Shown piece after piece: positions 12,001 to 15,000 of a stretch of 36,735 nt of DNA. The stretch lies in IMG/VR virus record IMGVR_UViG_3300045988_080861, positions 1 to 36,735 of that record. One strand, given 5' to 3'. This DNA comes from a virus. Taxonomy: Duplodnaviria > Heunggongvirae > Uroviricota > Caudoviricetes. Every line of letters starts with the position of its first letter. Position 1 is the first letter of the stretch. Position numbers: made by a program.

Positions 12001-15000
12001 TCGTCTGATGATTCGCAGTCAGTGGAGCGATGACAAGGCTAAGCAGATAGAGTCTGTCGTCATGCGCCTGTACGAAGAAGATGGGCTGCGCGGAGATGAG
12101 CTATACAAGAAAGCTCGCGAACTGGTCATTCCTCAATCATCGTTTAGCCACATCATCACTCTCGCCAAAGAATCAGATGATGCGGCTTTCGTTGAACGTG
12201 TGATGGTTAAAACGTTTCACCGTGAAAGCCCTGTCCGCGATGTAGCTATTAAGCGATATTGCAATCGCAATTGCACGCAAGATATAGCCAGGATTATTTC
12301 TTATATAACAGGTGCTGATATTCAGTATTGTCGTAAGCGAGTGGTGTGGTGTGAGAAAGTGCTGGAGTCAGAAATGTTTTATGCAATGAAACGAGAATTG
12401 GAGAAAGAATTTCCATTAATAGCGGCCTGAACTGAAATAATTTTGTAAATGCGTTGCTTCCGAGAAATGAAAGTGGTATTTTTTGTATATGCTCGGAGCA
12501 AAAGCGAACTGAGCAGCGAAATTGAAATCCTGATTTCCCCGGTTGCCGATAATATTTAGGGTCGACATACTGGCTAGATTAGGTAAGAGCCTCGGCATAA
12601 ACGTCGGGGCTTTTTTGTTTGCACAACAGGTAAGTGCATTTGTAGAGTTCGACTCTCTACCGTGGGCTTTTTCCCGCGATGCGAGCCATAAGTGCTCTTT
12701 CCGTTGTGCTGAATTAAGCGAATGCCGGAAGCAGAACCGGATCACCAAATGCGTGCAGGCGTCATCGCCGCCCAGCAACAGCACAACCCAAACTGAGCCG
12801 TAGCCACTGGCTATCCTGAATTCATCAGTGATAGTTACGCTGCGGCCTTCTTTTTTCCCCTTCCCAATATAAGAACTACGCAATCCGTTACTGGCGGAGG
12901 CGTTGCTATGAAATCAATGGACAAAATCTCAACTGGCATTGCCTACGGAACATCCGCTGGTAGTGCGGGATACTGGTTTTTGCAGTGGTTGGATCAGGTC
13001 AGTCCATCACAGTGGGCTGCGATTGGTGTACTGGGGAGTCTGGTTCTGGGCTTCCTGACATATCTGACTAACCTGTATTTCAAAATCAGAGAGGACCGTC
13101 GTAAGGCTGCACGGGGAGAGTAATTCAATGACTCAAAACTATGAACTGATTGTGAAAGGGATCCGCAATTTTGAGAATAAAGTTACGGTAACTTTAGCGT
13201 TACGGGACAAAAAACGCTTTGACGGTGAAATTTTTGACCTGGACATCTCGCTGGACCGTGTTGAAGGTGCCGCGCTGGGGTTTTATGAGGCAGCAGCCAG
13301 AAGGAGCATCAGACAGGTCTTCCTGGATGTTGCTGCCGGGTTATGTGAAGGGGATGAGCAGTCGCCGGAAAAGCGCCCCGTAATTTTAGAGGCGCAGAAT
13401 GTGTGGATAACCTACAAAGGAAAGCTACCAGGAAGAATTACTGGTTCTCTGAAGACTCCTCCGGAATCACAACCTTAAGTCACTGACCGGAACAGATAAA
13501 CCTGTCCGTGGGCAGAAACCGATAAATCCTGATAAATATCCATGAACGCAAAAATCAGATACGGCCTGTCGGCTGCCGTTCTGGCACTGATTGCCGTCGG
13601 TGCGCCCGCGCCTGATATTCTCGACCAGTTTCTGGATGAAAAAGAAGGTAACCACACAACGGCATACCGCGATGGTTCCGGCATCTGGACCATCTGTCGG
13701 GGTGCCACGATGGTGGATGGAAAACCCGTTTTTCCCGGTATGAAACTGTCGAAGGAAAAATGCGACCAGGTCAACGCCATTGAGCGTGATAAGGCGCTGG
13801 CATGGGTGGAGCGCAATATTAAAGTACCACTGACCGAACCACAAAAAGCGGGTATCGCGTCATTTTGTCCCTATAACATTGGCCCCGGTAAGTGTTTTCC
13901 ATCGACGTTTTATAAGCGGCTGAATGCCGGTGATCGTAAGGGGGCATGCGAAGCGATTCGCTGGTGGATTAAGGATGGTGGGCGCGATTGCCGCATACGT
14001 TCAAATAACTGCTATGGGCAAGTTATTCGTCGTGACCAGGAAAACGCATTAGCCTGTTGGGGGATAGAGCAGTGAGCAGAGTCGCCGCGATTATTTATGC
14101 TCTGGTTATCTGCACCATCGTCTGCCTGTCATGGGCTGTTAATCATTACCGTGATAACGCCATCGCCTACAAAGACCAGCGCGATAAAGCCACATCTATC
14201 ATCTCTGATATGCAGAAGCGTCAACGTGATGTAGCTGAACTCGACGCCAGATACACAAAGGAGCTTGCTGATGCTAACGCGACTATCGAAAGTCTCCGTG
14301 CTGATGTTTCTGCTGGGCGTAAGCGCCTGCAAGTCGCCGCCACCTGTGCAAAGTCAACGACCGGAGCCAGCGGCATGGGCAATGGAGAAAGCCCAAGACT
14401 TACAGCAGATGCTGAACTCAATTATTACCGTCTCCGAAGTGGAATCGACAGGATAACCGCGCAGGTTAACTACCTGCAGGAATACATCAGGACGCAATGC
14501 CTGAAATAATTTTTTTGCAAATCACACAGTCCATTTAATGAGCCTCGCGATGCGGGGCTTTTTGCAATAAATGCGTACCGCAACGCATGTTTTTTACACC
14601 GAACCTGCCCCTTTGGAATGGGCCTTTGAGGATACCAGTTAGTGCTGGCGAGCCTCGGTGGGCTGGTTTCCTGTGCGGCAAAGGTTCATTTCAAAGAGTA
14701 GGTACACGCTATGAAATCATTAACCCTCTTCAATCAACCAATTCGTATCGGTGAAGATGGCATGATCTGCCTCACTGATATGTGGAAAGCCAGTGGTAAA
14801 AGTGAATCTGAATCGCCTTACCACTACCTGCGAAACAAGCAGACCAAAGAGTTCTTAGCCGAGCTGGAGAAAAACCACGAATCTGTGGTTTTTACTGAGC
14901 GCGGTGTACACGGTGGAACATATGGCGGGAAGTTTGTTGCTTATGATTATGCAGCATGGCTAAACCCCGGATTTAAATATGCAGCCTATAAAGTCCTGGA

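Follow-up and report, generated by a model that had tools for sequence, protein, structure and literature searches.

A YdfR-family gene between the pinholin and endolysin genes of a lambdoid prophage: an accessory late gene rather than a lysis regulator?

What does a gene do that stands between a holin and an endolysin, where phage 21 has nothing? The question is raised by a lysis cassette in a 36,735-nucleotide (nt) stretch of Caudoviricetes DNA (IMG/VR record IMGVR_UViG_3300045988_080861), hereafter called the window, which was read on one strand and to whose full length all coordinates refer unless another locus is named. The cassette consists, in this order, of the holin gene S, an open reading frame (ORF) of 116 amino acids (aa), a lysozyme gene (R) of the signal-anchor-release (SAR) type, and the spanin gene Rz with Rz1 embedded in it; all four elements were found, and their coordinates are collected in Table 1. 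The original prediction treated the ORF as an unknown and unusual extra gene, which could be either a lysis regulator or a moron. We identify it as a member of the YdfR family (DUF1327). With a probability that we put at slightly above one half (ca. 0.55), YdfR serves as an accessory protein of the late phase, binding host RNase E and/or RNA, and its gene is a moron-like insertion that has become fixed between S and R in Escherichia.

The identity of the gene was clear from profile searches. The 116-aa protein matched the Pfam model of DUF1327 with a score of 141.6 bits (cut-off 25, E 9.2e-42), covering profile positions 1-92 of 93, and matched phrog_406/2091 with an E value of about 1e-67. 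Pfam and PHROGs scans returned DUF1327 and families of unknown function only, with no match in a lysis category. E. coli MS8345 has an annotated copy whose DNA is 100% identical, and related ydfR DNA occurred in 4104 of the 5426 complete E. coli genomes, at up to eight copies per genome. About 438 phage records carry this holin type, and 101 carry YdfR. Thus, the gene is neither unknown nor unusual, since the S-ydfR-R order is standard in the Qin prophage of K-12, in many Shiga toxin (Stx) phages, and in most E. coli genomes. K-12 and thousands of genomes already have the gene annotated under this family name and between the genes for holin and endolysin; the finding as such is known and ordinary. 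In the literature, the term "DUF1327" was found in one paper, and the sole substantive study of E. coli YdfR among the matches listed for "ydfR" is the 2026 RNase E screen discussed below.

The ORF is a real gene under purifying selection. Among 39 distinct coding sequences of the 113-116-aa class, the ratio of nonsynonymous to synonymous substitution rates (dN/dS) was 0.27 for codons 1-74 and 0.28 for the remaining tail; the lack of conservation that the original prediction had named as a reason to discard the ORF was not what we found. The gene starts 4 nt past the S stop codon and has a strong Shine-Dalgarno (SD) sequence (duplex energy -8.5 kcal/mol). Because this SD lies within the 3' end of S, and because the gap is so short, YdfR and the lysis proteins should be made together, all from the late transcript that depends on Q. 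The placement thus supports the co-expression with lysis genes that had been proposed. The absence of a membrane segment, also proposed, was confirmed by a hydropathy scan, in which no hydrophobic or transmembrane (TM) segment was seen and the highest 17-residue Kyte-Doolittle mean was 0.64. YdfR is therefore predicted to be soluble and cytoplasmic.

The closest well-known counterpart is the K-12 Qin cassette essQ-ydfR-rrrQ-rzpQ/rzoQ (YdfR, P76160), in which the order is the same: holin, 4 nt, ydfR, and a 177-aa RrrQ lysozyme. Identity to the window is 94% for the endolysin, 83% for the holin, and 80% for the N-terminal domain of YdfR, and in both cassettes R lacks an SD. The two differ in the C-terminal part of YdfR and in what follows it. 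K-12 YdfR is 103 aa long and ends in an unrelated tail, with ydfR stop and R start overlapping as ATGA, whereas the window protein has 116 residues and is followed by a 63-nt spacer before R. The Qin spanin RzpQ (DUF2514) is also of a different type, with 36% identity over a short stretch.

Comparison with cassettes that have no ydfR bears directly on its role. In the POCJ13 (a Shigella phage) or 933W-like Stx-phage cassette, S and R are directly adjacent and are followed by ant and then Rz. The POCJ13 holin is 81%, the endolysin 90%, and Rz 83% identical to those of the window, and the R gene of POCJ13 begins 4 nt past S, with an SD (-8.5 kcal/mol) that lies inside S; the two endolysins differ in their first five residues (MSRKF against MNAKI). 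Since homologous S and R genes occur side by side in POCJ13, YdfR appears, as judged from this comparison of sequences, to be dispensable for lysis. The identical holin gene of phage 21, which directly adjoins that phage's own R, and the record counts given above, only 101 with YdfR against about 438 with this holin type, point the same way. Nor does it seem to make up for a missing antiholin. YdfR accompanies both 71-aa S alleles with a dual start and 68-aa S alleles (as in YYZ-2008), which argues that it does not replace an antiholin that one of them lacks.

The family turned out to be small. An exhaustive DUF1327 profile search of 1.8 billion representative proteins returned 91 hits only, confined to the Enterobacteriaceae (Escherichia, Shigella, Citrobacter, Enterobacter, Cronobacter, and Salmonella). 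Two contigs labelled as Veillonella parvula or Bacillota metagenome-assembled genomes (L007 and L009) carry Escherichia-type holin-ydfR-lysozyme cassettes; binning contamination is the most likely source of these cassettes, more so than Veillonella or other Bacillota as true hosts. At all 86 examined Escherichia loci with intact flanks, as in the window, an S21-type holin gene is followed after 4 nt by ydfR and then by a gene for a 177-aa RrrQ-type lysozyme. The same S-ydfR-R order was seen in mEp460, Stx2 phage 86, YYZ-2008, and many Stx1a and Stx2c phages.

Outside Escherichia, the DUF1327 protein consists of the core domain only (72-86 aa) and is encoded elsewhere in the late region. Such stand-alone genes follow the tape-measure gene or lie between tail genes in Citrobacter (L095-97, L100, and L119-121) and in Salmonella phage ES18, follow the spanin genes in L108, and lie between the lysis genes and terminase in Enterobacter and Cronobacter (L098, L102, and L109-118). 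The ES18 protein, gp24, belongs to the same Pfam family and shares the core of ca. 73 aa with window YdfR (26% identity, pairwise E 9e-5), and its gene is likewise a late-strand gene inserted between conserved late genes. It differs in being a core domain only (86 aa), in lying between tail genes M and L rather than in a lysis cassette, and in having a convergent gene behind it, that of the partner gp25 (phrog_10490), for which the window has no counterpart. The GenBank record of ES18 annotates the gp24/gp25 pair as a "possible moron".

A convergent partner is a regular companion of the stand-alone genes. At all 26 stand-alone loci examined (at least 10 distinct sequences), a convergent ORF of 79-99 aa was found 4-29 nt downstream, at most loci 4-16 nt. 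Some Escherichia cassettes, such as those of F95 (phrog_2411) and Stx2 phage 86 (phrog_1853), also have a convergent ORF right after ydfR. Alignment of the window with F95 revealed an indel of ca. 270 bp exactly at the position of the partner, so that the window has the partner-less form. The partners fall into four PHROG families (2411, 1853, 10490, and 25324). A common origin of the four was considered and rejected, the hhalign probability between them being below 1%. A defence-system identity of YdfR and its partners was likewise rejected, as a PADLOC-DB v2 scan of eight of these proteins gave no match to a defence model at E values up to 0.1. One IMG/VR locus (L051, positions 4001-7263) carries a full ydfR with a truncated lysozyme gene and Rz; farther on come a fragment of ydfR, accompanied by a convergent partner, and a second full lysozyme gene and Rz. 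This rearranged or duplicated cassette suggests recombination between two cassette variants.

Does the gene, then, qualify as a moron? It interrupts a pair of genes, S and R, that lie side by side in the relatives POCJ13 and phage 21. A moron of the classical kind would also be flanked by a promoter and a terminator of its own; no site resembling either was found beside ydfR in the window, and the gene uses the SD inside S. ydfR is thus moron-like in its distribution and is not an autonomous transcription unit in the window. Taken as a whole, the DUF1327 family behaves as a mobile, moron-like module of the late region that is usually paired with a small convergent gene.

The protein itself is built of two parts. 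Residues 1-73 (13128-13346) form a conserved core of three strands and a helix, and residues 74-116 (13347-13475) form a family-specific tail. An AlphaFold2 (AF2) model of residues 1-77, built from an alignment that included remote family members, was confident, with a predicted local distance difference test (pLDDT) score of 88.3; it has antiparallel strands at residues 5-14, 18-27, and 33-43 and a long helix at residues 50-73. The model of the full-length protein was poor (pLDDT 59), and pLDDT in the tail was below 50. In a 38-sequence alignment including remote members, L7 is invariant, and M1, V9, Y53, E54, and A57 are at least 90% conserved; the core residues Y5-E6-L7, V9, Y53-E54, and A57 are all present in window YdfR. 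The tails of homologues vary in sequence and in length, giving forms of 103, 104, 114, 116, 176, 183, 206, and 268 aa. Four proteins (P0074, P0099, P0189, and P0192) contain an internal or tandem duplicate of the core, with two three-strand-plus-helix units in one chain of 169-196 aa. A Foldseek comparison of YdfR with viral models returned nothing at E values of 0.001 or less, and a profile search against PDB sequences found nothing.

What is known of the activity of the protein comes from K-12. YdfR was recovered there in a two-hybrid screen (Göpel et al., RNA Biology 2026, PMC13232886), in which full-length YdfR interacted with residues 1-597 of RNase E and YdfR residues 1-72 were sufficient for the two-hybrid interaction with this fragment. 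Both Rne1-598 and a DNase-resistant nucleic acid co-purified with Strep-tagged YdfR, and cells that overexpressed YdfR grew without defect and showed few changes in their transcriptome (PMC13232886). The binding region mapped in K-12 (residues 1-72) coincides with the conserved core as defined here.

Small phage proteins that bind or modify host RNase E and reshape RNA decay during infection include phiKZ Dip, T7 gp0.7, and T4 Srd. They have no sequence relationship to YdfR, and the likeness is a functional analogy only. The site of Dip on RNase E is the C-terminal scaffold, that of YdfR maps to the N-terminal half, and any effect of YdfR on RNase E activity is hypothetical.

These observations can be joined in the following way. 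ydfR would have been inserted between the gene of an S21-type pinholin and that of a RrrQ-type SAR endolysin, and would encode a small, soluble, cytoplasmic accessory protein that is probably not a core component of the lysis machinery. During late development, the YdfR core may bind host RNase E and/or RNA and so alter transcript processing or lifetime. The gene would have spread as a moron-like insertion which, in Escherichia, became fixed between S and R. In its choice between a lysis regulator and a moron, the original prediction holds up better in its second half: an accessory, moron-like insertion is favoured over a dedicated lysis regulator, because POCJ13 does without the gene, because remote members lie at tail and other late sites, and because the only functional data concern RNase E and RNA.

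Several points weigh against this proposal. The link to RNase E comes from one study of an overproduced, tagged K-12 protein that had almost no effect on the transcriptome. The authors of that study could not exclude a contaminant as the carrier of the co-purifying RNA (PMC13232886). The window protein has a 42-residue tail that differs from that of K-12, and the binding properties may not carry over; its N-domain is acidic (pI 5.4), which is atypical for an RNA binder. Two further observations could point to a role in lysis instead. One is the invariant S-ydfR-R placement in Escherichia. The other is that the ydfR mutant of the Keio collection is among the hits of a screen for envelope leakiness with chlorophenol red-β-D-galactopyranoside (CPRG) (PMC3879167, supplementary files 2 and 5). 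The kanamycin cassette in this mutant lies directly upstream of rrrQ, so a polar effect is a plausible cause of the hit.

Both of these observations would be accounted for if YdfR were a dedicated regulator of lysis timing that acts at the protein level, either as a cytoplasmic, antiholin-like factor that binds the basic C-terminal tail of S21 or by controlling translation or membrane release of the SD-less endolysin. Soluble cytoplasmic antiholins exist in other phages, T4 RIII and P1 LydB being examples. The translational coupling of ydfR to S, with a 4-nt gap and a shared SD, would suit such a regulator, and the adjoining endolysin gene, always without an SD and with a conserved leader, offers a site where an RNA-binding YdfR could act. 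Yet the fixed position in Escherichia may merely reflect inheritance of one recombination module. The lack of a TM segment and of any lysis-category match also speaks against a lysis regulator, as do the function of POCJ13-type holin and endolysin as direct neighbours and the co-occurrence of YdfR both with S alleles that have their own dual-start antiholin, as in the window, and with the 68-aa S of YYZ-2008. Remote homologues are encoded in tail operons, far from any lysis gene, and overexpression in K-12, which has essQ-rrrQ, produced no growth phenotype. We consider a dedicated lysis regulator rather unlikely. Still more doubtful, in our estimate, is a two-gene convergent module of which DUF1327 would be one half, both genes being needed for its function: the late-strand DUF1327 gene and an opposite-strand gene for a small helical protein would form, for example, a prophage-expressed exclusion or defence system or a toxin-antidote-like pair, with the window copy an orphan that is decaying or has been re-purposed. 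What makes this attractive is the convergent ORF found at every stand-alone locus and again in the F95 and Stx2 phage 86 cassettes, the F95 indel placed exactly at the partner site, and the maintenance of the pair through strong divergence (ES18 gp25 is 83% identical to its Citrobacter counterpart, whereas gp24 is only 26% identical to window YdfR). Against it, 116-aa forms without a partner are abundant, and purifying selection acts on them (34 distinct coding sequences, dN/dS ca. 0.27); K-12 YdfR, which has no partner either, is stable, soluble, and active in binding. Neither gene matches a PADLOC defence model, and ydfR overexpression was not toxic. Since the four partner families are not detectably homologous, they may be unrelated cargo beside a common insertion point.

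The remaining alternative is that the ORF is a chance frame or a non-functional remnant, and that its DNA matters only as a spacer that lowers endolysin translation. R does lack an SD wherever the insert is present, and the C-terminal part of the homologues varies widely in length (103 to 268 aa). The dN/dS of ca. 0.27 in both halves of the gene, the strong SD, the confidently folded core, and the conservation of the family across several enterobacterial genera all oppose such a reading, and the K-12 protein accumulates and binds partners. We regard it as scarcely credible.

An effect of the insertion in cis can be considered apart from the protein. In cassettes without ydfR, the final codons of S provide the SD for R (-8.5 kcal/mol in POCJ13 and -7.1 kcal/mol in phage 21); where ydfR is present, this S-embedded SD serves ydfR. 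In the window, the duplex energy of the R leader with the anti-SD is +0.3 kcal/mol, against -7 to -9.5 kcal/mol for the other genes, and R was without an SD at all 86 ydfR loci (mean +0.3 kcal/mol, range -2.8 to +1.6). A conserved AT-rich sequence ending in ATAAATATCC lies just before the R start codon (13517-13541 in the window, and at the 86 related loci). A regulatory RNA structure in the ydfR-R spacer was considered and rejected, the fold z-score being -0.86 and a small hairpin not being conserved in F95; an Rfam scan of the cassette gave no match. The insertion of ydfR should alter the translation of the endolysin relative to that of the holin, independently of the YdfR protein, and a cis effect of this kind is possible alongside any role of the protein.

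The other genes of the cassette could be assigned with more certainty. Over its 71 aa, S matches S21 of Escherichia phage 21 with 100% identity; the phage 21 record (OL657228) annotates S21-71/S21-68 with a dual start. The dual-start motif Met1-Lys-Ser-Met4 is present, with Met1 at 12908 (the S71 antiholin form) and Met4 at 12917 (the S68 holin form). The G40xxxS44xxxG48 face is visible in the translation, and identity to S21, the dual start, and two TM segments together characterize S as a pinholin. Because the identity to S21 is complete, the dual start and the pinholin assignment hold, and the phage 21 sequence and dual-start motif claimed for the holin at the outset are borne out. A text search of the literature for the S21 sequence itself retrieved nothing.

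R is most similar to the K-12 Qin RrrQ (94% identity), followed by POCJ13 R (90%), and is only 37% identical to DLP12 RrrD. The catalytic residues E35, D44, and T50 (a Glu-8aa-Asp-5aa-Thr triad) align with those of RrrD and R21. A SAR segment is predicted at residues 8-24 (13563-13613), GLSAAVLALIAVGAPAP, which is weakly hydrophobic and 53% Gly/Ala/Ser/Thr; the highest 17-residue Kyte-Doolittle mean of R was 1.91. By composition, hydropathy, and catalytic triad, R thus looks like a SAR endolysin, in agreement with the SAR N-terminus first proposed.

The probable start of Rz is GTG 14072, overlapping the stop codon of R; the TTG at 14057 chosen by the ORF-finding tool is less likely, and RefSeq annotates the same GTG start in MS 196-1. 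Rz has an N-terminal TM segment (residues 4-20, Kyte-Doolittle mean 2.69). Rz1 contains a signal and lipobox-like sequence, ...LLGVSAC (VSAC), as read from the translation. The nested coordinates of the matches to the two spanin families confirm that Rz1 is embedded in Rz.

The phage 21 cassette S21-R21-Rz21/Rz1 (OL657228), the paradigm for lysis by pinholin and SAR endolysin, shares with the window an identical holin and an Rz1 embedded in Rz, and its endolysin is likewise of the SAR type, with E35/D44/T50. It differs in that S abuts R, and the statement that phage 21 has nothing between holin and endolysin was confirmed in its record. The phage 21 endolysin is also of another lineage: the DLP12 homologue of R21, RrrD, is the distant relative of window R named above, and DLP12 RzpD is ca. 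60% identical to window Rz. With 37% identity to RrrD against 94% to RrrQ, R was rejected as an orthologue of R21, and the cassette is therefore a mosaic of S21 and a RrrQ-type R rather than a phage 21 cassette with an insert. The original description as a phage-21-type cassette stands for the layout of pinholin, SAR endolysin, and embedded spanin, and fails for the endolysin, which is RrrQ/933W-like.

Table 1. Features of the lysis cassette and its surroundings in the window, and convergent partner ORFs in related loci (coordinates of the locus named)
Feature	Position	Strand	Basis
Q-like late antiterminator gene	11786..12430	+	phrog_753 "anti-termination protein Q-like", E 2.3e-67; ORF list
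Terminator-like hairpin followed by T-run, between Q and S (putative)	12585..12614	+	Consensus scan
S, class II pinholin/antiholin	12908..13123	+	PF04971, E 8.6e-36; identity to S21; SD -9.5 kcal/mol
ydfR-family gene (DUF1327), 116 aa	13128..13478	+	PF07041; phrog_406/2091; RefSeq "YdfR family protein"; SD -8.5
ydfR-R spacer and endolysin leader	13479..13541	+	AT-rich, no SD, ends in ATAAATATCC before ATG
R, SAR-type endolysin of the T4-lysozyme family, RrrQ/933W-like, 177 aa	13542..14075	+	PF00959, E 1.4e-24; identities; hydropathy and composition
Rz, inner-membrane spanin, 145 aa from GTG 14072	14072..14509	+	PF03245, E 4.2e-36; SD -8.4 for GTG
Rz1, outer-membrane lipoprotein spanin, within Rz in another frame	14271..14456	+	PF06085, E 2.4e-20; phrog_3198; SD -7.9 at ATG 14271
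Convergent partner ORF, L104	2077-2349	-	
Convergent partner ORF, L091	3817-4131	-	
Convergent partner ORF, L095	3766-4053	-	
Convergent partner ORF, L122 (ES18)	3266-3553	-	

The region that contains the cassette is the late operon of a lambdoid prophage, and it is driven by the Q-like gene upstream. The true start of this gene is probably downstream of the TTG listed for it, because the profile match begins at residue 22. Some 480 nt separate it from S, and the putative hairpin in this interval is placed as would be expected of a tR'-type terminator read through by Q-modified polymerase; an analogous pR'/terminator layout is annotated in the phage 21 record OL657228. Downstream of the lysis genes are a KilA-N gene (14711-15208) and then terminase genes. 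About 1.2 kb at 15463-16670, from a phrog_875 gene to the terminase small-subunit gene, contains only overlapping, unconvincing ORFs. Farther upstream, at 9302-9500 (+), Rfam matches were obtained to c4-a1b1 targets (RF03163), the Hfq-binding small RNA isrK (RF01394, 78 bits), and C4 antisense RNA (RF01695); two anti-repressor (Ant-like) genes (9553-10230 and 10299-11027) lie directly downstream of them. The 9302-11027 segment looks like an antisense-RNA immunity and anti-repressor module of the P1/P7 or Gifsy style inside a lambdoid prophage.

A more far-reaching version of the RNase E proposal can be formulated. YdfR would bind both the catalytic half of RNase E and RNA and would control the processing or translation of the late transcript, especially of the SD-less endolysin message, providing an RNA-level lysis timer on top of the pinholin clock, and DUF1327 with its partner would be an unrecognised two-gene late-region module of enterobacterial temperate phages. 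We consider this a long shot. The gene for YdfR is found, frequently as several copies, in about three quarters of the complete E. coli genomes and in numerous Shiga-toxin phages. Should the protein modulate RNase E, or the rate at which the SAR endolysin is translated, lysis timing would be affected and, in Stx phages, toxin release as well.

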